From assembly GCF_018398935.1 (NCBI RefSeq), contig NZ_CP074694.1:2460001-2492000 (forward strand): a stretch of 32,000 bases of DNA. Reading direction: 5' to 3'. The notes beneath the pieces were generated by a model. The model saw only the letters and a program-made list of their open reading frames with translations. It had not been told where the DNA came from and searched no databases. Both the position numbers and the translations under genes were made by a program. Origin of the DNA: Telmatocola sphagniphila (GTDB taxonomy: Bacteria > Planctomycetota > Planctomycetia > Gemmatales > Gemmataceae). Positions 1 through 32,000 of the stretch are shown piece by piece. Positions within the stretch are counted from its first letter, which is position 1. Each line of letters begins with the position of its first letter.

Positions 1-3000
1 TTCAGTTCGTTGAAAATCCTCAGTTGAATCGCCTGGAAAAGTTTCTCCCCGCTTCCCAAAGCAACTTCGCTCTTGTAACGCAGGGCGTGATTGTACAAAT
101 CGATCAGCGCGAAGCGAAACCAGTTCTTCTGATCCTGCGAGGCTGGTTTTTCCAGCTGAGTTTGAATCCAGGTTTCAGCCTGCGTGTGATGTTTCAGTCG
201 CTCCAGATTGGAAATATAGCTGGAAATGATCGGATTCGCCTCGACGGGCAAGCGACCGCCATTTGCTTCAGCGAATTCCTTCAGAGCTGCTTGCAGGAGA
301 TCGGCCGTCCGTGGAAAGTCGGCCTGCACTTGCGACAAACTATAAGCGATGTGCAGTCGATCCGAAGAACCAATCTTCGCGTTAGCCAGCAGTTCGTTCA
401 ACTGTCGGAACTGCTCATGGCGTAACTTCTCAGGAGACAGTTGCCCCAGCGAAGCCAATAGACTTGCCATCAGCCGCGGTTCGCCAGGCGTCCATTCGCG
501 CTGGAAAGCTCGGCTTAGCGCTTCGTACGCCTTATCGATGTGCGGGCCCGCCTGATTCTGCAGAGCGGCCGCTCGAATTTCGATTAGCAGTTCCAGGATA
601 TCCAAAGCCCGGCGATCGACCGGAGTTTTGGCATCCTTTCGGACTATTTGAATTCTTTGGACAATCTCATCTACCACGGCTTCGTCGCGAATTTCGCCTA
701 ACACCGACCGCATCCCCTGCAGGAACGGGTGGACCTCCCCCGCCGTATGGCCTAGGACGGCATCGGGCAGCATCTGGAGCAACCGGAAGTCTCGGCAGGC
801 GGAATAGAAAGCTTGCAATTGCGAGAGATAATTCTGCGGCGTGGCCGACTTTTCGAAGAGAGCCCGGAATATGTAAAGAACTTCCGGGTCCAAATGAGTC
901 GGCAGGTTTCCATTCGCATACTGCCAGGGTCGCAGCTGAACATAAATGATCTGACTGAGTTGATATTCCTCCATCGTTTTATACACGGCAACCTTAGCCT
1001 GATCCGATTCGAGCTTTTTATTTTCCACCAGGTAATAATTGGCCAAAGTCTGGTAGTCGGCGGGTCCCAGATCTCCGGTATCTCGGATTTGCTCGAAGAG
1101 CTTGATCGCTTCGGAGACATTCCCCTGTTCGGCGCGGAGATATCCTAATGCGACCACCCACACACCGTTCGCGGCAGTGTCCCGGATCCAGGCGGTCAGA
1201 TCTTTTTCGAGATCCTTGGTGCGATCCAGACCGATTAACAGCAGATATTTCTCAGCTCGCCAACGCTCGACCTCCTTGTGATCCTTCATCTGCAAGTCAA
1301 AATACTGCAGCAAGCGTTCTCCTGGTTCCGGCTTGGCCCCTTTACGAGTGGCCAAATTTTCCAACATGATCAGGTTGCGCTGCTGCAGAGCTCTCGCCAA
1401 TCGCAGATTCAGGCTCTCTTCCTCATCGAGGTTTGCGTGCGGTAAGGATTGCCGGAAATCCTTCCAGCATTCTTCAGCCACCTGCTCGAGATTTCGCTCG
1501 AGTAGAATATCCAGCCAGTGACGTTCCGCTCGCAACCAAAGCGCGAACGGAGGCGCCGCTTTCTGACTTTCTTCGTTCAAGCGGTTGGAATATCCTTCCC
1601 GTGCCAGACGAAGGAATTCCAGATTCTTCTTTTGCAATTCCGTTCGAGTCAGTCGCTCCGGGTGCTCCAGAGTTTTCTTCAGAGCGCCTTCGCGGGACTT
1701 CAGCATTGCACTGGTAAGTTGGAGTAAGTGGCTGACGTAACTCGCCAATTTCTGCTCGGGTTCGTCGCTCTCAGTCAACTTGTCGAGAAGAATAAAGCAT
1801 TCCTTCTCGATCGCATCCGTCCAGCTATGAGCCAAAAGCAATGCGAATAATTTCTCCGCATAAAGCAAACGGTACTGTTCGGGACCTTCCCGATATTCCC
1901 GACGCACGAACTCCAGATCCCGATCTCCCGCCTCCCGAGACAAAAGACTCAGAATTACTTCTCCAATACGATGCTTCAGTTCCGGATTCTTCTCGCTCGT
2001 CCAACGACGGGTGAGCGTTTCCAGCAATTTCTTCAACTGGGCCTCGTAATTTGATAGTTCCGGGCTCACCCAACGAACCAGATGTTCTATCCTCGTTATT
2101 GACATAGTCTCTGCATCTTGGAAAAGCTTGGAGGCAAACTCTTTACGTAGCGCCAAGGCTGCTTCCGTGGAGTTGAAACGTGAATTGAAAATGGTACTCA
2201 CGAATTGAAGCCGATCATCGAATCGCGACAGTTGACGTGCCGACTTCTCCAGGGCGGGAACCCAGCTTTCATCGAATCGCGAAAGATAAATATCTACCAT
2301 CTGGCTGCAGGCGAATTGGATTGCGGCCTCAAGCCGAGCGCGAGCCGCGGGGGTGAGTTCCCCGTTCGCCTCCCCTTCGTTCAACCAGAGTACCACTTTA
2401 TCTTTGGCTTCTTTTACCTGATTGCTTCGGACCAGGGACTGCAAATAGAGGGCGTAGTGAGAATAAGATTCCGAGTCGTTTTTTAGCCAGCCGGCCAGAT
2501 TCGTGGCCAGGTCGCGATAGCGGCCGCGCTGTTTCAGAAATTGGAACAGCAGATCATGCAAATCGGTTTCCTGGCGCTTATTCCAGTTCGCGGCAGGTAC
2601 CAGAATCTTCTGCAGCCATTTGTCGGCGGCTTCAAAATCATCCGCTTCAATCAAATTTTTGACATGCTCGTGCTGAACCTGATATTCCTTGGGATATTCC
2701 AAAGTGAGCTGACGGGAAAGTTCCAGCGCCCGAGTCAGTTGTCCCGTGAGTTTAATCAGATTTATCTCGCGGGTCCGCCAGAGAATCGGAGCTTTTAGCT
2801 GGGCCGGTTGGCGATAATACAGCTCTTTAACCATAGCTTCAACCTGTATCAATTCATTCGCTTCCAGAATCTGGTTCGCTTGCGAGTAATTGTGCTCAGC
2901 GAGAAAATAGGCATTTGCTTGCACTTTGGGATCCTGGGAATTCACCAGGTTCCGGGCATCTTCCAACAAACGATTTTTCAATGGCTCATGCTGCCGGCTG

Positions 3001-6000
3001 GCCATCAGGAAGGAATTTACAAGGAATCGCAGTCCCGGTTTAGTGGCCGTGAGCTTCTCGAATTCGGAGAGTTGTTCCTGAGCGATAGCCCAGCGCTGAG
3101 AACTGGCGAAGTGAATAGTTAAAACAGCTCGCTCGATGAGAGTCGCCTTCCCCTCCTGCACGGCGGCCTTCGCTTCCTGAACCGAGGGGAGCTTCCGAGG
3201 CAGAAAAATCCCCCGCTCTATAAGACGAAGCTCATCTTTCATTTTCTGAGCAAAATTCGGCTTGGCTAACTCCGCAACTTGCAGGGTGACTCGAGAAACC
3301 ACCACTCCCTTTTCATTAATCGTTTCAATCTTGCGAGCCCACCACTGGCCACCGACTTCGATAAAATCACCGATTTGAATAGATGAAGTGATCTTCTCTT
3401 TGGCGCGATATTCCACGCTCAATACCACGTGTCGGCTGGTGTCGATGATATAACGAACTTCACTATCCTTTGAGTTCGGAATCTTGAGAATCAGAACCGA
3501 TCGTTCGGCGTTAATCTTTTCGACAGTAGCCAACTGATTCGAATTCACAATATGAAGTAGGCCGTTGGAATAATCGTGAAATCGGACCTGCGGATAGAGC
3601 AGATCGCTCTTAGCACTGGCGCGAGTACGACCTAGTTGGAACGCCGTGTGATAAAGTCCCGTTACCTTTTCATCCGACCAGGAAATAATCCCCGGGCCCC
3701 CATCAGGTTGCAGAGAAGTCAACCAGGCATTCCCCGAGAGAAGGGTCATCTCGTGGCTTCGTTCCTTCAATTCATTGCTGTCCGTATCAAAGTTGTCGAT
3801 CTGCGCGGTTACTTGGACTCCTCCTGCGAGTGTTCGGATCTTTTCCAATCGGGAAAGGCTCTGGGAAAGCTCAATCGCTTCTTTGGACCAGTGCGACTTA
3901 ATCACACGCGGTTCTGAAGTTCGCGCTATCACTTGGGGGAATAGAGAATCCAACCAGATTGGTCTTGGAGGGGTGGGAAATTGCAGTCGTCTGCGGTCGT
4001 ACATCAAATTCAATATCGACAAATCGGTTAGTCTTCCTCCGAAACCGGTTCGTCCAGCGGGCATCGACCGCTGCAAGCGTTTTCCGAGGAACAAGTTCTC
4101 AGAAACAGGCTCGCTGAGTGGTGCAAGCTTGTCCCTTGGCTCTTCGAATTCGGTGGAGTCGATCTCACTTTCACTCTTTGAGGGTGATGGCGTCAAATCA
4201 GTCGCGTCCAGTCCAAGAGCAGGAGATTCGATCTCTTTAAGGTCCTTTTCGCCACCTCCAAGAAGGGAGGGTAACTTCATGCCGAACTCTTCTCCGTAAA
4301 TTGCATCTTGTTTTTTGTCGTCGATTAAACCTGCGATCTCGATAATTTCTTCAGGAGTTCGCGAATCACTTTCGGGGGCGCCTTCCATGGCCCAAGCTCG
4401 GGGGTTTCTGATCATTAGTTCCCGATTTGGAATCACGTTGTTCACTCGCCCCAATCCCAGCAGTCGCGACAAAACCTGCTTACGAAGCTGAATCCGATAA
4501 TCCCCGGCCAGACGCATCTGCTTTTGCTTCAATTCGAAAGAGGAATTATCCTGTCCCAGAGCGAAGAATTTTTCTCCATCGCGCATTTGAAACCGACGTT
4601 TCACGGCGAATCGTGCGCGATCCGTATCCGATTCAAGCACTAGCAGCGATGTGTAGGGAGTGATGATTTGAAACTCCTCCGAGAGGGCAATAATCTCCTG
4701 TTTGATCGATTCGGAACTGCCCTGCTCCAGGAGTTTATCCAGATGCATGCGAGCCCAGAGACGAGGGATAAATGAGTTACCCGCTTCGGCGTCCCGCAGC
4801 GAAATTTTGGTGGTATACCGTACAGGCTTGCCACCCAATTTCCCGGTAACGATCAGCTCTCCGGCTTGATCTTTCCCTTCCGGAAGATACCGGCCGAGCA
4901 GGATCTGCTGCGAACCGCTGGGAAGATTCGGAATCTCCTCTGGATAGACTCGGGCCGTACGAATCCCCTGGAACTCCACCTTGAGATCGCGAATTCCCGG
5001 CGACGCTATTTCGCGAAGGAGTTCGAGTGCCGAGATTTGCGGGCCATGTTCGCTCGAAATTCTTCGGATGGAACCGCCGCCGATCGACGCTATAGCCTTC
5101 AGTACCGCGGGTTCGGTACTATTTCCCACGGTTACCGCATGAAAAGTACCCGGCTTATTGGAAGCAATTTGATTCAAACGTTTGGCGAATGCAATCGGAT
5201 CGGCGTCAATCGTAGTGGGAACCGCATCGCCAATGTAGATGACGTGCGTTTTTGCGTCGGTTTGCGTCAGGGCCGAGCCAAAAGCGCGATCCAAATCGGT
5301 CCAACCCAGTGATTTCCGCTTGGCCAGTGTATTCTGAATTAAGGCAATGTTGGTGGCGGTGGCCGGTTGTGGGTTGTCGAAGAGCCAGTTGGTATTCACG
5401 TCGCAGGTAGCAAAATTTATGAAATCTTTTTCGGTGAGCGCACTGGCTAAAGAGGCGATGAAAGTTTTTTGGGCCGCACGCTGATTCTTATCCAGGGAAG
5501 CCGAGGTATCGGCCAGAATCAGCAATCGAAGCGGCTCGCTATTGGGAATTAAAGGCCGTTCCCAGATCCCATCCGAACCCGGCGGCATCAGTTGAACCAT
5601 AAAATAGCCGTCGTCACCGCGACGATGCGGAATGACCACCACCTCGGACTGTCGCCCTTCCAGTTCCACAACCGCTTCAAAATCTCGTGTCGGCGTATAT
5701 TCCTGCGCGGTGAATTCCACTTTTCCCGAATGCTCCGTCTTGGCAATCCGACTTAAGTGCGTGGGTGAAGAGATATTTTTGATGGGGAGCGCCGAATGCA
5801 GTTGGACGTCGATTTTCAACTCGCGAAGAGGATGTTGCTTCAGCAATTCGCTCTGGAGGCCATAGCTATAGCGGTACTTATTCCCCTGGAGTGGCAGAAC
5901 CTGAGTATAGGTGATTTTGATTCGCTTTTCTGATGAGGCGTTTATCGGAAAGACCCGGGCCTTGAACATATTCCCCCCGGCCCACTCCAGCAGACCGGGA

Positions 6001-7028
6001 TCGCGTTTTTCACGGAGAATGGTTTCGTATATTTCACGTGCCCGCTCCTTCTCAACGATATCGGCTTCCACGAGTTTATCGCCGATCCACATGCCGAAGC
6101 CGGAGATCGAAGCATCGGCTGGCAACGGAAAATAGAAAACCCCTTCCAGAACCCCCGGCGTATGATTCACGAACGATTCCTCAATCGTCGTGCGGGCGAT
6201 CTGATCGCGAATGTCTACTTGAACGTGGTGGTAACCGACCGTCAGCGGAGTGCTTCGCCCATCGAGATTGGCAATCAACGAGCCGATCGATTCGTTGGCC
6301 GTAATTCCTTTGAATCCCTGCAGCCAGAGTGGCTCCTGCTCGACGGCGACCAGTTTTTCCTTTTCAATGCGGAAGATCTTCTTGGTAGCCACGCTCACTT
6401 TCTGAAGATCCGGCCCCACCAGTTCAATGGGTGCATTCGCTGCCGGGATGAGTTCGAGTTCCCCGGAAGAGAGTCGTATCTCGGTTGGTTTCACGAGTTC
6501 GACCGTCGAATGGGGACCTACAATTAACCCACTAGAATTGATGAGCCGGACGGAAGCGGCGTTGGCTCCCCGCGCATCGGTTCTTACCAGATCGCCCGGC
6601 TTGAGTACTAAATGTGGAGTTACTGGCGACCAGCGTTCCTGCTGAACGGGTTTCACCGTCACGAGTCCCTGGGAATCGGTAATTTTCCCGATTCTACCAT
6701 CATCGATCAATTTTTCCCCCAGCACGAATTTGTCTTCCGGCGCAGGCGGATCGGTGGGAAACAGCGGGACCACCCAGCGTGCAACAACTAATCCGATAAC
6801 TAACAAGGCGGCTAGTCCGCTAGCCGTCCATTTGAAACTCGAAATAAACATGATTCGTTTTCTCGATTGGGGAGAGGTCGAGGCCTTCTGGCTCTCGAGG
6901 AATATTTGCGTAGATTGTTCGCGTAAACGATTCAGATAAGCGGGATCGGGCGTCGGAATCGAGCCGTTCAACGACTTCATCAGAGCCTGAATTTGATCTT
7001 CGTTCGGGCGAGGTTCAGGTATGTTCAT
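1..7028 (-). CDS. Giant membrane-anchored anti-sigma-like sensor protein, partial (C-terminus lies beyond position 1). Order: short cytoplasmic N-terminus, one TM helix, FecR-like domain, VIT domain, vWA domain, acidic linker, beta-rich domain, more than 1,100 aa of helical-repeat-like sequence.
   Basis: Absent from the supplied ORF track because it has no in-window stop. I translated the minus frame from ATG 7028 down to position 3 without meeting a stop. GAGG lies 6 nt upstream of ATG 7028; an alternative ATG is at 7043, and an in-frame TGA sits at 7049-7047. No other ORF is listed in this minus frame between 1 and 7028, which fits one continuous open frame. The product starts MNIPEPRPNEDQIQALMKSL. 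TM helix WTASGLAALLVIGLVVARWVV is at about 6775-6840. A FecR-like stretch (GKITDSQGLVTVKP...W...LKPGDLVRTDARG) is at about 6430-6700. A VIT-like stretch (FVNHTPGVLEGVFYFPLPADASISGFGMWIGDKLVEADIVEKERAREIYE..KRDPGLLEW) is at about 5880-6240. A vWA domain with MIDAS-type DTSAS (LRLLILADTSASLD) is at about 5040-5535. Confidence 0.85.
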   Translation of the reverse strand, partial: MNIPEPRPNEDQIQALMKSLNGSIPTPDPAYLNRLREQSTQIFLESQKASTSPQSRKRIMFISSFKWTASGLAALLVIGLVVARWVVPLFPTDPPAPEDKFVLGEKLIDDGRIGKITDSQGLVTVKPVQQERWSPVTPHLVLKPGDLVRTDARGANAASVRLINSSGLIVGPHSTVELVKPTEIRLSSGELELIPAANAPIELVGPDLQKVSVATKKIFRIEKEKLVAVEQEPLWLQGFKGITANESIGSLIANLDGRSTPLTVGYHHVQVDIRDQIARTTIEESFVNHTPGVLEGVFYFPLPADASISGFGMWIGDKLVEADIVEKERAREIYETILREKRDPGLLEWAGGNMFKARVFPINASSEKRIKITYTQVLPLQGNKYRYSYGLQSELLKQHPLRELKIDVQLHSALPIKNISSPTHLSRIAKTEHSGKVEFTAQEYTPTRDFEAVVELEGRQSEVVVIPHRRGDDGYFMVQLMPPGSDGIWERPLIPNSEPLRLLILADTSASLDKNQRAAQKTFIASLASALTEKDFINFATCDVNTNWLFDNPQPATATNIALIQNTLAKRKSLGWTDLDRAFGSALTQTDAKTHVIYIGDAVPTTIDADPIAFAKRLNQIASNKPGTFHAVTVGNSTEPAVLKAIASIGGGSIRRISSEHGPQISALELLREIASPGIRDLKVEFQGIRTARVYPEEIPNLPSGSQQILLGRYLPEGKDQAGELIVTGKLGGKPVRYTTKISLRDAEAGNSFIPRLWARMHLDKLLEQGSSESIKQEIIALSEEFQIITPYTSLLVLESDTDRARFAVKRRFQMRDGEKFFALGQDNSSFELKQKQMRLAGDYRIQLRKQVLSRLLGLGRVNNVIPNRELMIRNPRAWAMEGAPESDSRTPEEIIEIAGLIDDKKQDAIYGEEFGMKLPSLLGGGEKDLKEIESPALGLDATDLTPSPSKSESEIDSTEFEEPRDKLAPLSEPVSENLFLGKRLQRSMPAGRTGFGGRLTDLSILNLMYDRRRLQFPTPPRPIWLDSLFPQVIARTSEPRVIKSHWSKEAIELSQSLSRLEKIRTLAGGVQVTAQIDNFDTDSNELKERSHEMTLLSGNAWLTSLQPDGGPGIISWSDEKVTGLYHTAFQLGRTRASAKSDLLYPQVRFHDYSNGLLHIVNSNQLATVEKINAERSVLILKIPNSKDSEVRYIIDTSRHVVLSVEYRAKEKITSSIQIGDFIEVGGQWWARKIETINEKGVVVSRVTLQVAELAKPNFAQKMKDELRLIERGIFLPRKLPSVQEAKAAVQEGKATLIERAVLTIHFASSQRWAIAQEQLSEFEKLTATKPGLRFLVNSFLMASRQHEPLKNRLLEDARNLVNSQDPKVQANAYFLAEHNYSQANQILEANELIQVEAMVKELYYRQPAQLKAPILWRTREINLIKLTGQLTRALELSRQLTLEYPKEYQVQHEHVKNLIEADDFEAADKWLQKILVPAANWNKRQETDLHDLLFQFLKQRGRYRDLATNLAGWLKNDSESYSHYALYLQSLVRSNQVKEAKDKVVLWLNEGEANGELTPAARARLEAAIQFACSQMVDIYLSRFDESWVPALEKSARQLSRFDDRLQFVSTIFNSRFNSTEAALALRKEFASKLFQDAETMSITRIEHLVRWVSPELSNYEAQLKKLLETLTRRWTSEKNPELKHRIGEVILSLLSREAGDRDLEFVRREYREGPEQYRLLYAEKLFALLLAHSWTDAIEKECFILLDKLTESDEPEQKLASYVSHLLQLTSAMLKSREGALKKTLEHPERLTRTELQKKNLEFLRLAREGYSNRLNEESQKAAPPFALWLRAERHWLDILLERNLEQVAEECWKDFRQSLPHANLDEEESLNLRLARALQQRNLIMLENLATRKGAKPEPGERLLQYFDLQMKDHKEVERWRAEKYLLLIGLDRTKDLEKDLTAWIRDTAANGVWVVALGYLRAEQGNVSEAIKLFEQIRDTGDLGPADYQTLANYYLVENKKLESDQAKVAVYKTMEEYQLSQIIYVQLRPWQYANGNLPTHLDPEVLYIFRALFEKSATPQNYLSQLQAFYSACRDFRLLQMLPDAVLGHTAGEVHPFLQGMRSVLGEIRDEAVVDEIVQRIQIVRKDAKTPVDRRALDILELLIEIRAAALQNQAGPHIDKAYEALSRAFQREWTPGEPRLMASLLASLGQLSPEKLRHEQFRQLNELLANAKIGSSDRLHIAYSLSQVQADFPRTADLLQAALKEFAEANGGRLPVEANPIISSYISNLERLKHHTQAETWIQTQLEKPASQDQKNWFRFALIDLYNHALRYKSEVALGSGEKLFQAIQLRIFNEL

Positions 7029-7635
7029 GGCAAGCCTCAGCATCAGTCATGGTCTCGCCCGTGAGCTTTTTGAAAATCCCTCGAAAGGCTTCCCGGGCGC
7101 GAGCCAGTTTGGAGCGCACGGCCGTTTCGGTGGTTCGCTCCCGTTCCGCAATGACGAGAATGGGTTCATCCTCTAAATATTTCGCAATCAACAATTCCGC
7201 GTAATCGTCGGGCAACTCGATCAAAACGGTTCGGACGAGTTGCTGCAACTCGGCCGATTCCAGCAGATCGGGGGCGAGAGAATCATTTCCTTCCAACCAG
7301 CGAGCCAGTCGCCCTTGACTGGCCGCTAGCCATTCGGGCCGATTCAATCGGGCCTGCTGTTGGCACTTTCGGAAGTGCAGGGACACCTGCAGTCGAGTAA
7401 TGCCCCAGAGCCAGACCCAAAGAGTTCCTTTCGATTCGTCGTATGTTCGAATGGAACGGGCGGCGGCCATCAAAGATTCCTGAACCACGTCCCCAATATC
7501 CGCTGATTGGGAGCCTAATAAGCGGGCCACGCCGTGCCAGACTCGCGGTGCGTAGCAATCGTACAAGGACTGCCAGGCGTGGGTATGCCCCTCCCGCAGT
7601 CCTCGAACAACCGTACGTGCCTGGTTCTCATCCAT
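7015..7635 (-). CDS. ECF-type RNA polymerase sigma-70 family factor
   Basis: 206-aa ORF. Region 2-like sequence: DVVQESLMAAARSIRTYDESKGTLWVWLWGITR. Region 4 HTH-like sequence: LPDDYAELLIAKYLEDEPILVIAERERTTETAVRSKLARAREAF. The size and two-domain layout are typical of group IV (ECF) sigma factors. Its 3' end overlaps the start of the downstream giant ORF. Confidence 0.9.
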   Translation of the reverse strand: MDENQARTVVRGLREGHTHAWQSLYDCYAPRVWHGVARLLGSQSADIGDVVQESLMAAARSIRTYDESKGTLWVWLWGITRLQVSLHFRKCQQQARLNRPEWLAASQGRLARWLEGNDSLAPDLLESAELQQLVRTVLIELPDDYAELLIAKYLEDEPILVIAERERTTETAVRSKLARAREAFRGIFKKLTGETMTDAEACHEHT

Positions 7636-7887
7636 AAATCGGGGATCCGTAGCTTCGCATTCGAGACGGCCTCGATTGCGGTAATCGAATCGATTCCCGC
7701 AAAAACCTCTTGCCGGTAAACTACCGGTCTTTTGGGGTGTTGTTACTATCCTATTTGCGCGGAAGGACCGAAATGTATCGCGGAAAACTTCGAGAATTGG
7801 GAAGTTGAGCTGTAACTTGCTGGAGGACCAGCAGTTGCGAAGCGAAATTCCTCGTAGAAGACTGGCGGAACTGAGAATCTCGGAGGG

Positions 7888-8517
7888 TTAAGAATCCGAA
7901 TCCAGGATTTTGAAAGATTCGAAGAATTTGATGGCGTTCGGATGTTCTTCAGTCATCCCGACGCCGCCGATGAGCTGAACGAATAATTGCTTATCGATCA
8001 CATAGGCGCGAACCAAAAATTTGACTTGCCGACGCGTATATTCCGCCACCAATTGTTTTCCGGGAGAATCGCCGAGTTTGATCGACTTTCGGCTCACCTC
8101 CCGTATGGTGGGAATATCCCGTCGCAAGCTCTGCATAAAACTCATGCAGACATCATCCAGGACCGCTACTTCCGAGCGAGTAGACAACTCGGAGAGGATC
8201 TTATCCTTGGTGTAAGCGAATTTAAAAATGGTATTCTCTTCTGGCTGGAGAGAATAAGTAACTATTTCCATTCCGGAAATGGTATCTTCCGTCGGCCGCA
8301 CTTTATTCGGGAGCATAAACCGAAAGTGATTTTGAACGAGGATTTCTTTCCAGAGTTCCTTGTTCTCAGTTGCCTTGGATGAGGAATATTTTTGCATTCC
8401 TTCCCGGGCAAGAAAGAAGCTCATCGCTCCGAAAACCAGGCCCAAAATAGTTACGAGGGGAGTACTCGTTCCCTTGCGGCTGTAAAGGCTCGACAGCACG
8501 GCACTGGAGAGGATCAT
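7888..8517 (-). CDS. Hypothetical N-terminally membrane-anchored protein
   Basis: 209-aa ORF with an ATG start. One hydrophobic helix (LVTILGLVFGAMSFFLA) is followed by a soluble domain with no motif I recognise. Coding-like composition, somewhat AT-richer than its neighbours. Confidence 0.6.
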   Translation of the reverse strand: MILSSAVLSSLYSRKGTSTPLVTILGLVFGAMSFFLAREGMQKYSSSKATENKELWKEILVQNHFRFMLPNKVRPTEDTISGMEIVTYSLQPEENTIFKFAYTKDKILSELSTRSEVAVLDDVCMSFMQSLRRDIPTIREVSRKSIKLGDSPGKQLVAEYTRRQVKFLVRAYVIDKQLFVQLIGGVGMTEEHPNAIKFFESFKILDSDS

Positions 8518-8649
8518 GCACCAATCTCCGCGAATTATTCACTATTCGTCTGGGTTTAAGGATTTCGAGTCCTTTTGATATATAGCACCCGAACAAATTA
8601 AAATTCGGCGAAAAGTGAAATTGAATGCGGTTGCTGCCCGCCCTCAATT

Positions 8650-8666
8650 TTCAGATTAAATCTGAA
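8650..8666. promoter_or_regulatory. Perfect 17-bp palindrome, candidate operator
   Basis: TTCAGATT-A-AATCTGAA read directly, with 8-nt arms that are exact reverse complements. It lies in the divergent intergenic region about 175 nt upstream of the ABC ATPase ATG (8842). The loop is too short for it to act as an RNA hairpin. Confidence 0.25.
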
Positions 8667-8841
8667 GAAATGCTGGGGTATTTTGCTCACGCAGCGAGCC
8701 GTCGCCAGGCCATAGGAATGTCGGTGAAATTTTAGTCGGCTTCCGGCAATTCGCTACCGGCATTGAAAATCTGGCCGGAACCATATCAAATCAGAGCATC
8801 GATGAATTTTCTGCCGGAGTCTGCGGGAGGCCAGGGATAAT

Positions 8842-9813
8842 ATGCTGATGATTCATGCCAAGGGTCTGGCGCGATCCTTCCAGACCAAACGGGGAACGGT
8901 CGAAGCAGTTCGCGGAGTGGATTTCCAGGTTTCGGCCGGGGAGATTGTCGGTTTCCTGGGCCCCAACGGCGCCGGGAAAACCACTACGCTCCGACTCCTC
9001 ACCACCTTGCTCCGTCCCACCTCAGGGACAGCGGAGGTTGCGGGCTGTAATCTAATTTCGGACCCGGAAGCCGTTCGCTGCAAGATAGGCTATGTCGCGC
9101 AAGGAGGTTCTGCCGCTCCGGACGCCACGGTAACGGAAGAGTTGATTTATCAGGCTCGGCTGTACCGCATCAATAAAACCGAAGCGGCCCGGCGAGCCGA
9201 ACAACTTTGTAAAGAGTTGGACCTGGCCGGTCTCGAATCTCGGCGTAGCAGCACACTCTCGGGAGGCCAACGACGTCGGCTCGACATCGCTTTGGGTTTA
9301 GTTCACAGTCCACCACTGGTGTTTCTCGACGAACCGACCGTTGGCCTGGACCCACAGGCTCGGGCTAATCTTTGGGACCACATTCGCCGGTTACGCGACA
9401 AATCGAATACGACGATCTTTCTCACCACCCACTATCTCGATGAAGCCGACGCTCTCTGCGATCGGATACTAGTTATCGATCACGGCAAGATCGTGGCCGA
9501 AGGCACTCCAGAGGAATTGAAACGACAGGTCTCCGGTGATGTCATCCACGTTGAACTCTCTTCCGAGCTGGAAAAAGCTCGAAAAATTTGTTCCGCTCTA
9601 CCCGGTATCCGAAAAGCAGTTCTCTCGGAAGAAACCTTGCACCTGAACGTGGACGACGGTGGTCAAGCGATGATGAATGTTCTGCGAGCTCTGGATACTG
9701 CTCAGGTGCCTTTAACTTCCATCCAGTTATCGAGGCCGACGCTCGACGACGTCTTTTTGACGCTCACCGGTCGATCGCTTCGAGACGACGAGATCGCAAA
9801 GACCGGCAAGTAA
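8842..9813 (+). CDS. ABC transporter ATP-binding protein (DrrA / ABC-2 exporter type)
   Basis: Walker A GPNGAGKTT, ABC signature LSGGQRRRL, Walker B LVFLDEPTVGLD, H-loop TTHYLDEA. Followed 55 nt downstream by an ABC-2 permease. Confidence 0.95.
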   Translation: MLMIHAKGLARSFQTKRGTVEAVRGVDFQVSAGEIVGFLGPNGAGKTTTLRLLTTLLRPTSGTAEVAGCNLISDPEAVRCKIGYVAQGGSAAPDATVTEELIYQARLYRINKTEAARRAEQLCKELDLAGLESRRSSTLSGGQRRRLDIALGLVHSPPLVFLDEPTVGLDPQARANLWDHIRRLRDKSNTTIFLTTHYLDEADALCDRILVIDHGKIVAEGTPEELKRQVSGDVIHVELSSELEKARKICSALPGIRKAVLSEETLHLNVDDGGQAMMNVLRALDTAQVPLTSIQLSRPTLDDVFLTLTGRSLRDDEIAKTGK

Positions 9814-9867
9814 AAAAGCAGCCGCAAAATTCAAATGGAACGAAATTCAGCGTTTTAAGGAATATCG

Positions 9868-10629
9868 ATGGAAACCGTGCGCGATATCTCTCTAGTTTTT
9901 CAACGCCATGTCTATCAGGCTCTGCGCAATCCGGTGCTGATGATAATCGGCCTGATTCAACCAATTCTCTATCTCTGTCTGTTTGCCCCTTTATTGATCG
10001 GATTTGCGGGGAAACCGGGCTTTCCTCAAGGCGATTCCCTGCAGATTTACGTACCAGGTCTTCTCGTTCAGTTGGGACTATTCGGTACGACTTTCGCCGG
10101 GTTTGGGATCATCAGTGAATGGCGGATGGGATTGCTGGAACGCATGCGAGTGACCCCGGTGAGTCGCCTGGCGCTTTTGCTAGGGCGTGTTCTACGAGAT
10201 GCTTTCGTTCTCGAGTTGCAAACTCTCGTTTTGATCATTGCGGCCTTCGCTTTTGGGCTGCGAGCACCGATCGCCGGCGTACTGGCGAGTTTGATTTTAG
10301 TCGGATTGCTGGCAATTACCGCGGCATCACTTTCCTACGCCGTCGCGTTGACTGTAAAATCGGAGAATGCCTTTGCCCCGATCCTGAACATCACCACCAT
10401 CCCCCTTCTTTTACTGTCTGGCATCTTATTGCCAATGTCCCTAGCCCCTTCCTGGCTGGATACCCTTTCGCGTCTCAATCCGCTCAGATATTTAGTCGAG
10501 GCGATTCGGGAATTGTTTTTGGGCAATTATTTCAGCGATCGGGTCTTTCTGGGCGCGGGGCTGATCGCGGTTTTAGCAGTGGTCGCCGTGGCGATCGGTA
10601 CCCGCAAGTTCCGCTTGGAAAATGCTTAA
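9868..10629 (+). CDS. ABC-2 type transporter permease
   Basis: 253-aa polytopic hydrophobic protein with about 6 predicted helices, directly downstream of the ABC ATPase. Its length and topology are typical of the ABC-2/DrrB family. Confidence 0.85.
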   Translation: METVRDISLVFQRHVYQALRNPVLMIIGLIQPILYLCLFAPLLIGFAGKPGFPQGDSLQIYVPGLLVQLGLFGTTFAGFGIISEWRMGLLERMRVTPVSRLALLLGRVLRDAFVLELQTLVLIIAAFAFGLRAPIAGVLASLILVGLLAITAASLSYAVALTVKSENAFAPILNITTIPLLLLSGILLPMSLAPSWLDTLSRLNPLRYLVEAIRELFLGNYFSDRVFLGAGLIAVLAVVAVAIGTRKFRLENA

Positions 10630-11591
10630 CTCTTTGCGGTAATTCGTCTTTCTTTCCTCTGGGCCTCTTTGGAAGGAAGCTTGAGATTCCAAGCCAAACC
10701 CAAAAAGGCCATCATTCGGATCACCCAGTAACTGGTATCGATCTGCCACCAGCTTAATCCGTGGCGAACCGAGGTGGGAAAGGCATGGTGCGTATTGTGC
10801 CAGCCCTCCCCCATGGCCAGGATGCCGAAGAAGATATTATTCCGACTCTCATCGTCACTGTGATACGGTTGCATCCCCCACAGATGACATGCGGAATTGA
10901 CGCTCCAGGTGATGTGATGCACCAGGAAAATGCGAACCAGGCCCCCCCATATAAATCCGGTCCAGGCCCCCATCCAACTCGAGGAAATGATTCCACCGAG
11001 CACCGCAGGCAAAATCAGGCTCAAAGCCACCCAGAGCGGAAACAAATCATTCGCGATCCGAAGACTCCGGATGTTCTTTAAATCCTTGATATAGTGTTCG
11101 AAATCGGCCGGATCGGCATTAAAAAACCAGCCGATATGAGCGTGCCAAAAACCTTTGAGCAAACCCAAAAATCCCTTCCCATGATGGTGCGGCGTATGGG
11201 GGTCTTCCGGCCGGTCGCTGAACTTGTGATGCCTGCGATGCATGCCGACCCACTGGAATAAAGCTCCCTGAATCGCCATGGAGCCGAAAATCGCCCAGAG
11301 GAACTTTATCCAGACATAGGTTTCAAAAGATCGATGCACGAAAAGACGATGAAAACCGATTGTGATTCCCAATGCGGAAACAGTGTACATACCCAATAGC
11401 AGGCCCAAGTCTGTCCAGCCGAATCCCCAGCCCCAGACAAAAAATGGAGCGGCCATCACTCCCAGCAACGGAACAATGATTGCGACTAAGGTCAATAACC
11501 GGACCCCGAGAGTCACTTTTTGAGGAGGTACTTCGAAAGAGCTAAAGTCCGATTTTCGCTCGGCTACTAGGATTTCAGAAAGTTCTGGCAT
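10626..11591 (-). CDS. Membrane fatty-acid desaturase, acyl-CoA/acyl-lipid delta-9 (OLE1/DesC-like) family
   Basis: Three histidine boxes in the canonical order and context: GFHRLFVHRSF, WVGMHRRHHKFSDRPEDPHTP and GEGWHNTHHAFPTSVRHG. N-terminal TM helices are present. Confidence 0.9.
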   Translation of the reverse strand: MPELSEILVAERKSDFSSFEVPPQKVTLGVRLLTLVAIIVPLLGVMAAPFFVWGWGFGWTDLGLLLGMYTVSALGITIGFHRLFVHRSFETYVWIKFLWAIFGSMAIQGALFQWVGMHRRHHKFSDRPEDPHTPHHHGKGFLGLLKGFWHAHIGWFFNADPADFEHYIKDLKNIRSLRIANDLFPLWVALSLILPAVLGGIISSSWMGAWTGFIWGGLVRIFLVHHITWSVNSACHLWGMQPYHSDDESRNNIFFGILAMGEGWHNTHHAFPTSVRHGLSWWQIDTSYWVIRMMAFLGLAWNLKLPSKEAQRKERRITAKS

Positions 11592-12691: not shown

Positions 12692-12775
12692 TGCTGGAGA
12701 CAGGACTTGAACCTGCACTCTCTTGCGAGAACCAGCCCCTCAAGCTGGCGCGTCTGCCAGTTTCGCCACTCCAGC
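12692..12775 (-). tRNA. tRNA-Leu (anticodon GAG), class II with long variable arm; CCA not encoded
   Basis: Minus-strand sequence: GCTGGAGTGGCGAAACTGGCAGACGCGCCAGCTTGAGGGGCTGGTTCTCGCAAGAGAGTGCAGGTTCAAGTCCTGTCTCCAGCA. Acceptor stem GCTGGAG/CTCCAGC. Anticodon stem CCAGC/GCTGG with loop TTGAGGG (U33, GAG, G37). Variable arm TCTC-GCAA-GAGA. T-arm GCAGG-TTCAAGT-CCTGT. Confidence 0.85.
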
Positions 12776-12878: not shown

Positions 12879-14777
12879 CTAACTCACCATCTGTGCCCAG
12901 ATATTCTTTAGAGCATCTTTACTATTGGTCGGCAAATTGCCCTGCGCATATTCCAGCCGGGCAATCAGCACCGCCAACCTTAAAGCCTGCGGGTCAAGAT
13001 CGGGAAACTGATTTTGAATCCGTCCCGCGAACTCCAGAGGTGTTTCATCGACAGAGCGTGCGGCCTCCCGGTCACTGGCCCAGGCCTCCATAGCCGAGAA
13101 AGTATAGCGGATCAGCGTTTCGGTACTTCGAGAGCGGGCGCTGCCGTCTTCGAACGGATTGGAAAACTGTGCAAAGGTGATCTTCGGTTCCTCAACCGGC
13201 CGTTCTTTCTCGATAGATTTTGCGGCCCCTCGGCCGAACAACCGATCTAAAAAACCTTGGATTCGAGCGAGTAGACTTTGAGCCCATTTAGTAAACGGAG
13301 CGATATTTTTCAGCACGAAATAAGCGATAATGAAGAGAACTATCAGCAGCACGACCGCGAAAACAATCCACTTCAGGAAGGCCGCGATATTCTGGAATAC
13401 TTTGCCTAACTGGTTCTGTTGAAACTGTTCGAAGCTGTCCCGGTCGCGGTCCTGATTGCTATCGCGATTTTGAGTCGTCTTTTGTTGTTCGTTCGAATTT
13501 TGATCTTTGGAGCCCTTCTGCTCATTCCGGGTCTGCTGCCCTTTCTCCCCCGGGTTGGGTTGCCCCTGCTCGCCTTTCTTCGCCGCGTTCGGACCATTTT
13601 TTTGATCTTTTGAATCGTCCGATTGATTTTGATTTCCTTTGTTCTGATCGCCGCGACTATTCCCCGATTTTCCCTCTTTGTCGCCGCTGCCTTCCTTGGA
13701 TTCGCCTTTTTCCCCTTTGCCTCCCGGGTTGCCTTTTTTGGCGGTTGCTGAACCATCACCGGCTTTTGTCTGTTCGCCGGTTCGGCCTTCCCCTTTGCCG
13801 GCATCGCCACTACGACGAACTGCATTCTTGGAAGCATTCCGTTCCGTGGAATTCAAAAAATCGAGCTTAACGAGCGGAGTTTCGGAATAAGGGCGCGGCA
13901 GAATCGCCGACACGACAATGAAGCCGGCAATCAATACGGCCCCAATTCCCAGCCAAATCCCCGTCATGGCCTTGGGCATGGTGAGATCACGCTGGCGAAT
14001 GTACCGGCGGACGCCCAAAAAGCTGGTGGTGAGTAGAAGTCCTAGCGAACAGGCCACGTAGACCGCCGCCAGCTGGAAAACGAAGCTTCGTCGAGCCCCT
14101 TCCCCGGGAGGAATCAGAGACTGGCCCAAGCCGAAAATCGGTAACGCGGCCATCGCAAAGTAGATGATGGTCGTCCCGGGCGTATGCGGCTTTGATTCCT
14201 TCCTTTTGCGATACTCCTGGTATCGTTCCCACCAACTCAAGGATGGTGTATAGGGATTGTCGTGCCCCGGCTCCGGTTCGACAGGCTCTTCCTCTTCTTC
14301 ATGCAATTTCTTGCCTTCGAATCCCACGGCAGAAAGCAAGCCCCTGTCGGCTGATTCCCGCCGTTCGTCTATGTGAGTGCAGTCCCGGACCAGTTTGTGA
14401 GAGGTCCACCAGACGATCAGCAGCAGACCGCAATTGATTAGGATAGATAGCTTACCGGCCAGGGTATCCGGTGGATATTTGACATAGGCGATGAGCGCAA
14501 CGAGGGAGGCCCCACTCAATGCCAGCCCATACATGGTTGACCGGGCGGGATCCACAACAATCGATATCCGGCAGACCAGCACTATCCCGAAGACGAAGAA
14601 AAAAAGCGTGTAAAGCAGGTTGCTTTCATACTTTCCCGCGTAGAAAATTTCCGCCAGGAAAAACACGAGGCTGCCGACCACTCCCATGATCAGCATCGGG
14701 CTTAAGGCAGTAACCACGTAATCTGCCACGCCGGGTCCGGTTTCCTCGGTCGCGGCGGGTTTGGGGAAAGGTCGCAT
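12879..14777 (-). CDS. Polytopic membrane protein with a C-terminal DUF4129-like domain and a long internal low-complexity segment
   Basis: 632-aa ORF with about 8 N-terminal TM helices. A Lys/Gly/Gln/Asn/Asp-rich segment spans aa ~312-456 (nt ~13410-13844), followed by one more TM helix (FLKWIVFAVVLLIVLFIIAYFVL). The C-terminal tail resembles DUF4129: ETLIRYTFSAMEAWA...ETPLEFAGRI...LRLAVLIARLEYAQ. Confidence 0.8.
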   Translation of the reverse strand: MRPFPKPAATEETGPGVADYVVTALSPMLIMGVVGSLVFFLAEIFYAGKYESNLLYTLFFFVFGIVLVCRISIVVDPARSTMYGLALSGASLVALIAYVKYPPDTLAGKLSILINCGLLLIVWWTSHKLVRDCTHIDERRESADRGLLSAVGFEGKKLHEEEEEPVEPEPGHDNPYTPSLSWWERYQEYRKRKESKPHTPGTTIIYFAMAALPIFGLGQSLIPPGEGARRSFVFQLAAVYVACSLGLLLTTSFLGVRRYIRQRDLTMPKAMTGIWLGIGAVLIAGFIVVSAILPRPYSETPLVKLDFLNSTERNASKNAVRRSGDAGKGEGRTGEQTKAGDGSATAKKGNPGGKGEKGESKEGSGDKEGKSGNSRGDQNKGNQNQSDDSKDQKNGPNAAKKGEQGQPNPGEKGQQTRNEQKGSKDQNSNEQQKTTQNRDSNQDRDRDSFEQFQQNQLGKVFQNIAAFLKWIVFAVVLLIVLFIIAYFVLKNIAPFTKWAQSLLARIQGFLDRLFGRGAAKSIEKERPVEEPKITFAQFSNPFEDGSARSRSTETLIRYTFSAMEAWASDREAARSVDETPLEFAGRIQNQFPDLDPQALRLAVLIARLEYAQGNLPTNSKDALKNIWAQMVS

Positions 14778-14803
14778 GAGACCGGCTCGATTCTCGATGA
14801 CAT

Positions 14804-15403
14804 TTACTTTTTCGCGGGTACCGGCTTATTCGACTTGATCTGCAGCTTCCGCGTGAAAACTTCCGACCCCGCTTTTACGATTATCAAATCTTCCGCATCG
14901 CCGCCCGAGCTGATAAAGCCCATCTGGGAAATCGGATTCTTCGAGGGATTCACCATCACGCCGGCCAATCGTGCTCCCGGATCGAAAATCTGAATGCCCG
15001 CCGGAGTAGCCGCATAGAAACGGTTCATCGAGTCGCTGGCCATCGCGGTAACTTCCAATTTCTTCTGCCCCGGGGCCACCTGCATGGCGTAGCATTTGTC
15101 GCCCGCGTCCAATTGGCAAATTGATTTCTGCTCATCGTACTGGACTCGGTAAGCCCAGAGGTGATAGTCCGATTTATCGGCGACTACCAGAGTTCCGCCA
15201 TCCTTCCAGAGCCCAAACACTCCAGGCGACTCCAGAGGTATCTTGACTTTCAAAACGGGAACCTTTTCGACCGGTAGCTGATCGGTCTTGGCCAGCTTCC
15301 AGCTCTCATTCTCGACGAGAATCGTGGATAGAGGCATATCCTGGGACTGCACGCACGACGCGAAAAGTAGAAACCCGCTTAGAACCAAAAGCAAGCTTTT
15401 CAT
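14804..15403 (-). CDS. Secreted lipoprotein, possibly a partial SMP-30/gluconolactonase-like beta-propeller
   Basis: I chose the internal ATG at 15403 (MKSLLLVLSGFLLFASC, lipobox LFASC). The track's longer start at 15460 would overlap the esterase gene. C-terminal pattern: FYAATPAGIQIFDPGARLAGVMVNP...GFISSGGDAEDLIIV. Confidence 0.65.
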   Translation of the reverse strand: MKSLLLVLSGFLLFASCVQSQDMPLSTILVENESWKLAKTDQLPVEKVPVLKVKIPLESPGVFGLWKDGGTLVVADKSDYHLWAYRVQYDEQKSICQLDAGDKCYAMQVAPGQKKLEVTAMASDSMNRFYAATPAGIQIFDPGARLAGVMVNPSKNPISQMGFISSGGDAEDLIIVKAGSEVFTRKLQIKSNKPVPAKK

Positions 15404-15420
15404 TGTCGTCACTTTCTTAA

Positions 15421-16344
15421 TTACTTCGCCGGAGCGGGAGGGGTGTCTCGCCAGAGCCACTTGAGCGATTCGGGCAAGATCGCGCCGCCATGCCGACCAC
15501 TGTGTCCTCCGGTGCCGAAGACAAACTGGTAGTCGTAATTCATATACTTCAAGGCCGCGGCCATGGACTTATTCGCCAACGGCCAGGAGCCAAAAAGGTT
15601 ATCCAGATCGTTCTCGCCATCCTGCAGGAAAACTCGGATCGGCTTGCGTTCGGTTTTGCGAATCAAAGACGGATAAATATCTCCGCCGCGAATATTGGTG
15701 AAGGAACCGACGTGGCTAAGCACTTTGCCGAACATATCGGGGCGCACCCAGGCCGCCGTGAAAGCGCAGATGCCACCCGAGGAGATCCCGCAGATCGCTC
15801 GCCCAGCCGCATCGTGGCGGATCTTGTACTTTTCCTCGAGAAGCGGGAACATTTCCATTTCGAGAAACTCGGAGTACTGCGGCGAGGGAGTGTCGTATTC
15901 GAAGCTCCTGTTCTCACGGGACCGCCCTTTCGGCTCCTTAGCTGGCACTACTCCCGGATCGATAAACAAGGCGATCGTAACCGGCATCTCCTTCTTGTGA
16001 ATCAAATTGTCGAACACAACCGGCACACGGAAGTCTCCTTTAGTATTCAGGTAGGCATTGCCATCTTGAAAGACCATCACACAAGCAGGTGTCTTGCCAT
16101 CGTACTGCTCCGGAACGTAGATCGCGTAATTGCGAACTGTGCCCGGGAAAACTTTGCTCTCCATTTTGTACTGAGTGACTTTTCCCTGCGGCACACCCGG
16201 CTGCACCAGCGAATCGGGGCCGTGCTTGTAATCCTCGTTATTTTTCTTCGGAGATTTCGGTGCGTCTTTCCGGATTTCCTGAGCAGTTATCGGATTAACG
16301 AAACCTGTGGAAACGATGAGCAAGCCAAGACAGAACCCTCGCAT
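15421..16344 (-). CDS. Secreted alpha/beta-hydrolase of the putative esterase (enterochelin-esterase / esterase D-like) family
   Basis: Signal peptide [23 protein letters not shown]. Nucleophile elbow G-I-S-S-G-G within [19 protein letters not shown]-terminal GGHSGRHGG fits the catalytic His region. Confidence 0.85.
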
Positions 16345-16433
16345 AATCGATCACCCCGATACTGAGCAGGAATGGCATTAAACTAACAAGATTTATTGCG
16401 ACTCTCAAGACAAAAGGGGGCCATTCCAAGCGA

Positions 16434-16460
16434 AAAGCCAGGCGTTGGAAGCCTGGCTTG
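16434..16460 (-). terminator. Hairpin terminator downstream of the TPR lipoprotein gene (weak T tract)
   Basis: Perfect 9-bp stem AAGCCAGGC (16435-16443) / GCCTGGCTT (16451-16459) with a 7-nt loop. On the minus strand it starts 27 nt after the stop codon at 16486 and reads GCCTGGCTTTTCG. Confidence 0.45.
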
Positions 16461-16485
16461 GGAAGTTCGATTTAGAAAGTTGGGC

Positions 16486-17352
16486 TTAGCGTTGCGCGGT
16501 CAACTGAGGGACACTCGCAAAGGAACGAGCTGGCAGAAGACTGTCGTCCCACATACTGTTAGAGGCAATGGTCGGCCTCTCAAGTGGATCGTTTGAGGAA
16601 ATCGGCTCGTTAAACCCGGCGGGCATTACTGGCGCGCCCGCGGGAGTCCCTTGAGCTTCTCCATTCATACTCTTCAGAAATTCCTTGGCGGGAAAGTAAT
16701 TCGGATTTACCTGCAATGCTAACTGCATCTGCTCACGGCATTGAGCTTCCTGATTCAAGTGCATCATCATCCGGCCGAGGTTGTAGCGGGCATCCGGTTC
16801 GCTCATCGAGCGGATCAACCAGGCATACGATTCCTCGAATCGTCCCGCGCGAGCCAGAGTCATCCCCAGCATTTTTCGGTAGACTCGGTTGTCCGGATCG
16901 AGCTGACAAGACTGATGCAGAGAATCGATCGCCGAGTTCCAATCCTTGAATTGGCCGTAACAGCAACCCTGTTCATACCAAACTGCGGCATTTCGCGAAT
17001 GCGTTTTCAAAGCGGTTTGGTAAGTCGCGATTGCCTTGTCCTTATCCTGCATATTGGAATAAACGTGAGCCATGCCGAGCAAAGCGGGTAAATGAGTCGA
17101 ATTATGATCCAGAGCCGTTTGATAAGCTTGAAGGGCTTGAGCTTGCAGCGAATCCTTTTCATGTGTCGGGCGATTGGGCTGTAAAGCTGCTTCCGCGCGG
17201 ACATCCCCAACGGCTACCAGTGTTTCGGGACGAGTATTAGCATCTTCTTTCATCACAGTAGTGGCGGAAGTATTTTCCCGCTGAAAGGGTTTCATGCAAC
17301 CCGCGGAAAAGAGAATAGGCGTAGCTACCAACATAAGCATCCGTGCTTGCAT
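16486..17352 (-). CDS. TPR-repeat lipoprotein (candidate TadD / secretin pilotin-like)
   Basis: I chose the ATG at 17352 (MQARMLMLVATPILFSAGC, lipobox FSAGC); the track's 17373 start is a TTG. Several TPR-like repeats are present, for example AIATYQTALKTHSRNAAVWYEQGCCYGQFKDWNSAIDSLHQSCQLDPDN. Confidence 0.8.
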   Translation of the reverse strand: MQARMLMLVATPILFSAGCMKPFQRENTSATTVMKEDANTRPETLVAVGDVRAEAALQPNRPTHEKDSLQAQALQAYQTALDHNSTHLPALLGMAHVYSNMQDKDKAIATYQTALKTHSRNAAVWYEQGCCYGQFKDWNSAIDSLHQSCQLDPDNRVYRKMLGMTLARAGRFEESYAWLIRSMSEPDARYNLGRMMMHLNQEAQCREQMQLALQVNPNYFPAKEFLKSMNGEAQGTPAGAPVMPAGFNEPISSNDPLERPTIASNSMWDDSLLPARSFASVPQLTAQR

Positions 17353-17457
17353 CGTGAATCCCCCCGAATTCAAGTGATCGTCCTTCGAAAAACCCGGGGT
17401 GGAACCGCTGTGCGCGCCACCCTAGATTCTCGAGAATATGGGGTGTTCGGTACCAGC

Positions 17458-18834: not shown

Positions 18835-18867
18835 TGTGCTGAGTCTCGAAGCGATAAAGCCCAATAA

Positions 18868-22108: not shown

Positions 22109-22127
22109 TTATTGCCAATATAGAACA

Positions 22128-23504: not shown

Positions 23505-23566
23505 CGCTTCTACCTCTTGCTGTCAATCACGCCGTCGAATCTTGGTGAAGTATCATCAATCCACGA

Positions 23567-24778: not shown

Positions 24779-24796
24779 AATCTTACCATCAAATAA

Positions 24797-24822
24797 TCGA
24801 ACCGCGACGAGTCGCGGTTCGA
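24797..24822 (-). promoter_or_regulatory. Strong GC-rich hairpin between cpaC and cpaE (attenuator or mRNA-processing candidate)
   Basis: TCGAACCGCGAC-ga-GTCGCGGTTCGA, with 12-nt arms that are exact reverse complements. On the minus strand it is followed by TTATTT. It ends 18 nt upstream of the cpaE ATG (24778). Confidence 0.45.
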
Positions 24823-24848
24823 ATAATTAAGTCAATTCGATCTCGAAA

Positions 24849-31588: not shown

Positions 31589-32000
<412 letters not shown>

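Follow-up and report, generated by a model that had tools for sequence, protein, structure and literature searches.

A conserved ECF sigma factor gene overlapping the gene of a giant ITIH-like/TPR membrane protein in planctomycetes, a putative sigma/anti-sigma pair

Introduction

In the SigW-RsiW and RpoE-RseA systems, a small sigma factor of the sigma2-sigma4 type is paired with a single-pass membrane protein whose gene overlaps that of the sigma factor. The membrane protein has a cytoplasmic N-terminus, one transmembrane helix and an extracytoplasmic sensor part, and a conserved motif stands upstream of the sigma gene. Here we describe a locus of the same layout from Telmatocola sphagniphila (Gemmataceae, Planctomycetota), which would share autoregulation as well if its sigma factor reads the motif. 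It lies at the left end of a 32,000-nt stretch of contig NZ_CP074694.1 (hereafter the window, to whose positions all coordinates refer unless another locus is named) and consists of a gene for an extracytoplasmic function (ECF) sigma factor and a much larger gene for a putative anti-sigma protein. Unlike the two described pairs, the Telmatocola protein has a cytoplasmic segment of only ~50-65 residues with no described anti-sigma domain and an extracytoplasmic part of ~2,850 residues, and the motif upstream, GCGAYAC-N14-GCGCAAA, is not of the GGAAC/CGT type.

To our knowledge, dozens of ECF sigma factors and numerous giant genes are found in Planctomycetota, almost none of them with a known role. 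Reviews on planctomycetes mention only that giant genes whose role is unknown are numerous in this group. Among catalogued systems the nearest is the group ECF289, for which an anti-sigma factor with a von Willebrand factor domain and DUF3520 has been predicted (Casas-Pastor et al. 2021, PMC7826278). The two cases are alike in that each has a predicted anti-sigma factor with a periplasmic von Willebrand factor type A (vWA) domain and is known from comparative genomics only. The Telmatocola protein is set apart by its lack of DUF3520, which is not among its Pfam matches at E<=0.1, and it adds a VIT domain, a beta domain and at least 1,900 further residues. Full-text searches of the literature found no description of this family. 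The locus is a variant of the ECF sigma/anti-sigma theme that occurs widely but is unstudied, and its sensor part, built of an ITIH-like module and tetratricopeptide repeats (TPR), is exceptionally large.

Results and discussion

A sigma factor gene and a giant gene form a conserved module

The sigma factor gene (minus strand, 7015..7635) encodes a protein of 206 amino acids with Sigma70_r2 at residues 24-90 and Sigma70_r4_2 at residues 132-183 in Pfam. It scores 53.8 bits against TIGR02937 (sigma70-ECF; cut-off 42.9), and with the sigma2 and sigma4 domains only it belongs to the ECF (group 4) sigma factors. The specific NCBIfam sigma models all scored under their cut-offs with this protein, and its nearest solved structure is SigW (E 8.5e-11). 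The stop codon of the sigma gene (7015-7017) lies downstream of the ATG of the large gene (7026-7028), the two genes overlapping by 14 nt. As far as their arrangement can tell, they would be co-transcribed and are probably translationally coupled.

The part of the large gene within the window, the putative anti-sigma gene, occupies 3..7028 on the minus strand and encodes residues 1-2342. An initial annotation of the window had read this frame as open from the ATG at 7028 to position 3, and our translation gave the same result: 2,342 codons with zero stops, a run that would arise by chance with a probability of (61/64)^2342, or ~e^-112, when 3 of 64 codons are stops. That annotation had also remarked that the gene is missed by the list of open reading frames (ORFs). 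The gene is indeed absent from the list, because its reading frame runs off the window edge; the omission is an artefact of that edge, and the gene is publicly annotated as KIH39_09760, under the names hypothetical protein and "VIT domain-containing protein". The annotated T. sphagniphila protein (P0001) has 2,935 amino acids, and its residues 1-2342 are 100% identical to the translated frame. Extending the contig to the left (L083), as had been proposed for recovering the C-terminus, gave the whole gene, which ends after 2,935 codons and is followed by convergent genes; the C-terminal 593 residues fall left of window position 1.

The pairing of the large gene with an ECF sigma factor, also proposed initially, is conserved well beyond Telmatocola. 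In a species-level genome scan, relatives of the large protein were found in 568 stretches, from which 80 loci were kept, and a word-based search returned 956 related protein clusters. The size of the protein is unusual, as had been claimed by comparison with the few hundred residues of typical FecR-type anti-sigma factors, whereas the family is not rare, with relatives in at least 568 species genomes. Most of them belong to Gemmataceae, Pirellulales, Thermoguttaceae and Planctomycetaceae, and remoter relatives occur in Brocadiaceae, Phycisphaerae and bins labelled Kiritimatiellae, Verrucomicrobiales, Latescibacterota and Acidobacteriota. In 44 fetched loci and in Gemmata obscuriglobus, the gene that immediately precedes the large gene, on the same strand, encodes an orthologue of the sigma factor (E 1e-60 to 1e-90), and the stop-start overlap between the two genes is often 4 or 14 nt among the homologous loci. 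When the flanking ORFs of 60 loci were clustered, the sigma gene was the only conserved neighbour. The sigma gene and the large gene are a real, conserved two-gene module.

The cytoplasmic N-terminus changes with the sigma factor

The large protein begins, as initially described, with a cytoplasmic stretch of about 60 residues followed by a single transmembrane helix. The cytoplasmic segment (residues 1-65; 6834..7028, minus strand), which we regard as a putative sigma-binding module of type A, carries the conserved motif E..LAALLAA..DAAPPD..FL.RLR.QS..F (motif A) and two predicted helices, at residues 10-20 and 29-48. The transmembrane helix was located by hydrophobicity at residues ~66-90 (6759..6833, minus strand): among the 2,342 residues within the window, 19-residue Kyte-Doolittle windows above 1.8 start only at residues 65-74, and the basic stretch SRKR precedes the helix on its N-terminal side.

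Three states can be distinguished among the homologous loci. In the first, a type-A sigma factor is accompanied by motif A at the N-terminus of the large protein, and this was the case in all 44 loci, in the window and in Gemmata; 14 motif-A cases were missed by tblastn and were confirmed by eye. In the second state, type C, four loci (L010, L068, L069 and L082) have a different ECF sigma factor of 170 amino acids, related to the window sigma at ~1e-12 (in L010 its gene lies at ~4667-5182 of that locus), and the large proteins start with a different cytoplasmic motif, LSGPLRDAIE.IRR.EPS.AMLARVLERARQI. In the third state, seen in 12-13 loci mostly outside Planctomycetia, there is no sigma gene and the large protein begins with a cleavable signal-peptide-like start that leads directly into the beta domain. 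Because these sigma-less relatives carry signal peptides, the core of the protein can be placed outside the cytoplasm, and their existence also implies that the extracytoplasmic protein is the older part and works on its own.

The sequence type of the N-terminus thus co-varies with the type of sigma factor over ~60 loci, which supports the general idea of the initial annotation that the N-terminus is an anti-sigma module. We consider it likely that the two genes encode a cognate, autoregulated ECF sigma/anti-sigma pair, grafted onto a giant protein that was ancestrally secreted. According to this model, the first ~65 residues would lie on the cytoplasmic side of the membrane and sequester the sigma factor, to which, judging from the co-variation, they would bind physically. 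The remaining ~2,850 residues would be extracytoplasmic and serve as the input; their predicted layout is a beta domain with a FecR-like fold, the VIT-vWA module, a disordered acidic linker, a beta-rich domain and an alpha-solenoid/TPR part of ~1,650 residues. An extracytoplasmic event would release the sigma factor by proteolysis or a conformational change: the trigger could be a ligand (metal-dependent) or a partner at the metal ion-dependent adhesion site (MIDAS) of the vWA domain or on the TPR surface, or alternatively damage to, or proteolysis of, the giant protein itself. The freed sigma factor would then transcribe at least its own operon from GCGAYAC-N14-GCGCAAA. As for the origin of the pair, the signal peptide of the ancestral secreted protein would have been swapped in Planctomycetia for an anti-sigma cassette with a signal anchor, and the dedicated sigma gene would have been gained along with this cytoplasmic cassette, apparently in two versions.

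The same co-variation bears on another explanation, in which the sigma factor merely transcribes the giant gene and the N-terminus serves as a signal anchor only, so that the two proteins are co-expressed but do not bind each other. The shortness of the N-terminus and the lack of any detected known anti-sigma domain would agree with it. On the other hand, a mere anchor would not need a conserved cytoplasmic motif of 50 residues, and this motif switches its type with the sigma type and gives way to a signal peptide where the sigma gene is missing; we regard co-expression without binding as improbable.

A more far-reaching version of the grafted-pair model can also be considered, namely that the N-terminal types A and C are a new, exchangeable class of anti-sigma cassettes. 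On two or more occasions, an old secreted giant of the ITIH-like/TPR kind would have acquired such a cassette along with a separate sigma factor and promoter, and the outcome would be a private circuit that reports the engagement or integrity of the giant protein of roughly 3,000 residues and controls its synthesis via a non-canonical promoter. We put this version forward tentatively and are rather doubtful of it as a whole. A phmmer search of 1.84 billion representative proteins found motif A in no stand-alone small anti-sigma factor; all 30 matches were members, or contig-end fragments, of the same giant-protein family.

A promoter-like motif upstream of the sigma gene

A conserved two-block, promoter-like motif lies upstream of the sigma gene (7752..7785, minus strand). 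In the window, block 1 (GCGATAC, 7781-7775) and block 2 (GCGCAAA, 7760-7754) are separated by 14 nt, and 118 nt lie between the end of the motif and the ATG of the sigma gene. In 34 homologous loci the two blocks precede the sigma gene at this fixed spacing, with the consensus T...GCGACACAT..CG-N8-GCGCAAA. A position weight matrix built from 26 training sites was used to scan 1.3 Mb on both strands, and it gave 35 matches, all of them just upstream of a sigma gene and on the gene strand, six being in loci outside the training set. When the window site was left out of the matrix, it still scored 38.7 bits, and the runner-up among all sites of the 32 kb reached 13.0. No match to a sigma-70-type promoter was seen on the strand of the sigma gene. 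Three of the four type-C loci have a different, classical ECF-like motif, GGGTAATT-N16-GCGTCTAA. The motif therefore changes with the sigma type, as is expected from autoregulation by a cognate sigma factor, and these patterns of conservation suggest that the motif serves as a promoter for the sigma factor itself.

The only copy of the motif that was found is at the operon's own promoter, and because of this a supply feedback has to be taken seriously as a rival explanation. In such a feedback the giant protein would be a structural, adhesive or scaffolding effector of the envelope, and the cassette would only steady its level: free sigma factor would drive the operon, its sole target, and newly inserted giant protein would titrate the sigma factor. 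Such a loop agrees with the confinement of the motif to the operon's own promoter in all the DNA scanned, with the conservation of no neighbour besides the sigma gene, and with the sigma-less signal-peptide homologues, in which the core works without a sigma factor. The conservation of all 2,935 residues would also fit a working machine better than a mere sensor. However, distant targets may exist, as the motif scan covered 32-42 kb of the T. sphagniphila genome and ~20 kb per homologue, and ECF anti-sigma factors normally pass on a signal. A closed negative loop would also leave unexplained why two sigma/N-terminus cassettes were recruited. Taken together, we think that supply feedback is unlikely to be the sole purpose of the pair, and we favour a grafted sigma/anti-sigma pair that responds to an extracytoplasmic event. 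The ITIH-like module with its invariant MIDAS residues speaks for this pair as well, and so does purifying selection on the large protein, in which invariant residues are spread over the full length of the alignment.

Several observations weigh against this favoured model. Residues 1-272 of the large protein have no Pfam match to a known anti-sigma domain at E<=10, 18 N-termini have no Pfam anti-sigma match (of the zf-HC2, RskA or RsiW-like kinds), and a profile search of the PDB with the N-terminal segment gave no match. The segment consists of just two predicted helices, and the confidence of the structure model is low there. Three loci (L004, L037 and L059) keep the type-A N-terminus with a disrupted or truncated sigma gene. 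As to the motif, its assignment as a promoter rests on conservation, GCGAYAC-N14-GCGCAAA is unlike the GGAAC/CGT consensus of classical ECF promoters, and no second copy was found in 32-42 kb of the T. sphagniphila genome or in ~20 kb per homologue.

If the model holds, this family, which is conserved in hundreds of species, links a single dedicated sigma factor with a putative anti-sigma protein that ranks among the largest. The system is a tractable case, since it offers a candidate promoter and a natural experiment in the form of sigma-linked and signal-peptide versions of the same protein, and its ITIH-like metal-dependent binding module is the likely input. It could show what giant envelope proteins do and how a sigma/anti-sigma cassette joins an existing secreted protein, and it could tell whether a new type of sigma-binding domain is present in the short N-terminal motif.

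Some individual loci deserve mention. The disrupted or truncated sigma genes of L004, L037 and L059 may reflect either an assembly error or genuine decay. L059 retains a truncated remnant of sigma2, which continues in frame into the type-A N-terminus of the giant protein (4966-11190 of that locus). In L004 and L037, the sigma gene upstream of position 6001 is apparently disrupted, the N-terminal motif being kept in both and the promoter motif in L004. The giant gene is present twice, on different contigs (L032 and L064), in one metagenome-assembled genome of Thermoguttaceae (DATKZH01), and the two copies are therefore paralogues within one genome. Another locus of Thermoguttaceae (L055) has the signal-peptide version and no sigma gene.

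The juxtamembrane beta domain and the FecR family

The initial annotation had assigned the large protein to the FecR class of anti-sigma factors, and this assignment did not hold. The region in question is a juxtamembrane beta domain (residues ~108-245; 6294..6707, minus strand) that has a FecR-like fold in the predicted structure (mean pLDDT 84) as judged by Foldseek. Among PDB entries, 5ix9 fits best (E 1e-3; a cell-surface anchoring domain), followed by the C-terminal cell-surface signalling domain of PupR (6ovk_R; probability 0.98, 92 columns, root-mean-square deviation 2.8 A, TMq 0.39). FecR and PupR are also alike the Telmatocola protein in their membrane topology. At the level of sequence families, on the other hand, membership in the FecR family found no support. 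FecR itself (PF04773) has no Pfam match in the window protein even at E<=10, with sub-threshold matches in only two of 20 homologous beta domains (best E 0.082), and a profile of the beta domain searched against the PDB matched MtxA at E 0.015, with neither FecR nor PupR among the matches. In Pfam, FecR_N/DUF4880 was found neither in the window protein nor in 18 N-termini, and the large protein has no STN/DUF4974 domain. The FecR label of the large protein is thus not supported, and the likeness of its beta domain to FecR and PupR, seen in the predicted model, would be one of fold only.

These results also bear on the possibility of true FecR-type signalling, with input from a TonB-dependent outer-membrane transducer followed by autocleavage and intramembrane proteolysis. 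The shared layout of a cytoplasmic N-terminus, one transmembrane helix and a periplasmic beta domain speaks for it, together with the high-probability PupR fold match and the faint PF04773 signals in the two homologues. Against it, FecR, FecR_N and STN are all without a Pfam match even at E<=10, and no TonB-dependent receptor gene exists in the window, on the extended contig or in the conserved neighbourhoods of homologues. The sigma factor is nearest to SigW-type models and is not FecI-like. Moreover, the beta domain is also present in the sigma-less, signal-peptide homologues and is therefore part of the secreted core, not an anti-sigma transducer. FecR-type signalling at this locus thus seems very improbable, and the beta domain is better placed, in the grafted-pair model, within the ancestral secreted protein.

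In most homologues (e.g. P0041, P0086 and L010), an extra domain of 130-190 residues stands between the transmembrane helix and the beta domain, with the consensus ...W...P...R.....G.Y.IA.G..W.VDEKAN.A...; it is missing after the helix in Telmatocola and its nearest relatives. This extra domain may be LolA-like, because one of its carriers is named outer membrane lipoprotein-sorting protein by JGI.

The VIT-vWA module and the rest of the extracytoplasmic part

Beyond the beta domain, the architecture read in the initial annotation was recovered throughout, namely a VIT domain, a vWA domain with an intact DTSAS MIDAS motif, an acidic linker and a long helical tail. The VIT domain (PF08487, E 7e-29) spans residues 267-374 (5907-6230), and the vWA domain (VWA_3, PF13768, E 1e-9) residues 501-653 (5070-5528), with the DTSAS motif at 5496-5510, all on the minus strand. 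The MIDAS residues D507-T-S509-A-S511, T577 and D601 are invariant in an alignment of 24 homologues. Together with a C-terminal beta/helical part, the two domains make up a genuine ITIH-like module (residues 273-808; 4605..6212, minus strand), which is collinear with ITIH4 (E 1.4e-19) and has ITIH1 (6FPY) as its top fold match (E 4e-34, TM-score 0.68).

The likeness to ITIH1, ITIH4 and other VIT-vWA proteins (PARP4) extends over the VIT domain, the vWA domain and the C-terminal part, ~540 residues in all, and includes the full MIDAS. Unlike the ITIH chains, to which it is only 15-20% identical, the Telmatocola module sits inside a bacterial membrane-anchored giant, and the DPHFII-type cleavage and transfer site of ITIH is missing, neither DPHF nor PHFI being present in the large protein. 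A second comparison can be made with envelope-tethered, extracytoplasmic VIT-vWA proteins of bacteria: the marine proteobacterial sortase targets of TIGR03788 and the XrtN, MSEP-CTERM and PEP-CTERM VIT proteins. TIGR03788 is the best NCBIfam match of the large protein, with 193 bits over residues 397-806, which is far from the family cut-off of 551. In contrast to that group, the tether of the Telmatocola protein is an N-terminal signal anchor, and no C-terminal sorting signal (LPXTG or PEP-CTERM) was found at the end of the 2,935 residues.

The module is followed by a variable linker (residues 870-1020; 3969..4421, minus strand), recognised by its composition, rich in E, D, S, P and G, and without a consensus in the 24-sequence alignment. 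The structure model of residues 1-870 falls below pLDDT 50 over its last stretch, residues 859-870. Next comes a conserved beta-rich domain (residues ~1020-1280; 3189..3971, minus strand) with many invariant residues, such as W1047, W1229 and W1230. Its sole family hint is a weak match to LolA_like (PF17131, E 0.021), according to which it is possibly LolA-like.

From residue ~1281 the protein is rich in helix formers (content 0.5-0.58) and low in proline and glycine. The part of this helix-rich, repeat-like region within the window (residues 1281-2342; 3..3188, minus strand) has only weak TPR matches in Pfam, including TPR_19. Beyond the window, strong matches of the C-terminal part to consensus TPR and OGT TPR were obtained, with E-values of 1e-20 to 1e-61 (alignment-profile positions 2,900-3,058), and TPR is also found in the precomputed Pfam matches of homologues. 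The helix-rich tail thus continues to residue 2935 and ends in canonical TPRs.

Surrounding genes

Directly upstream of the promoter-like motif and on the same strand is an ORF of 209 amino acids (7888-8517, minus strand). It has no Pfam match and is called as a gene in the extended contig; it is not conserved at other loci. Divergent from the sigma operon, a pair of genes for an ABC-2 type transporter (ATPase and permease) lies at 8842-10629 on the plus strand. In G. obscuriglobus, an ABC_tran/ABC2_membrane pair is likewise present within 4 kb upstream of the orthologous sigma gene; across the 60 loci, a transporter pair near the sigma gene is not conserved.

The window also contains a Tad/Flp pilus cluster that looks complete (20072-29169, minus strand). 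It comprises two T2SSF genes (TadB/TadC), a T2SSE ATPase (CpaF-like), a receiver and ParA/MinD-like protein (CpaE-like), a secretin, RcpC/CpaB and an A24 prepilin peptidase. A link between the output of the sigma factor and these surface-organelle genes had been suggested speculatively. Tad/Flp genes are not conserved beside the homologues of the large gene in the 60 clustered loci, and the matrix scan of the window found no copy of the promoter-like motif at them; the pilus link is therefore unsupported.

Between the transporter pair and the pilus cluster, a run of genes at 12882-18864 on the minus strand encodes a DUF4129 protein (632 amino acids), an unknown protein of 218 amino acids, an esterase, a TPR protein and an AAA protein (weakly MoxR-like), and this run may be a MoxR/vWA-type envelope module. 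Its MoxR-like, TPR and DUF4129 genes are not conserved next to the homologues of the large gene and have no motif copy. A tRNA-Leu gene (anticodon GAG; 12692-12775, minus strand) is the only Rfam/ARAGORN match in the window, and the C-terminal end of a gene for an efflux pump of the AcrB/AcrD/AcrF family (31592-31993, minus strand) is cut by the right edge of the window.

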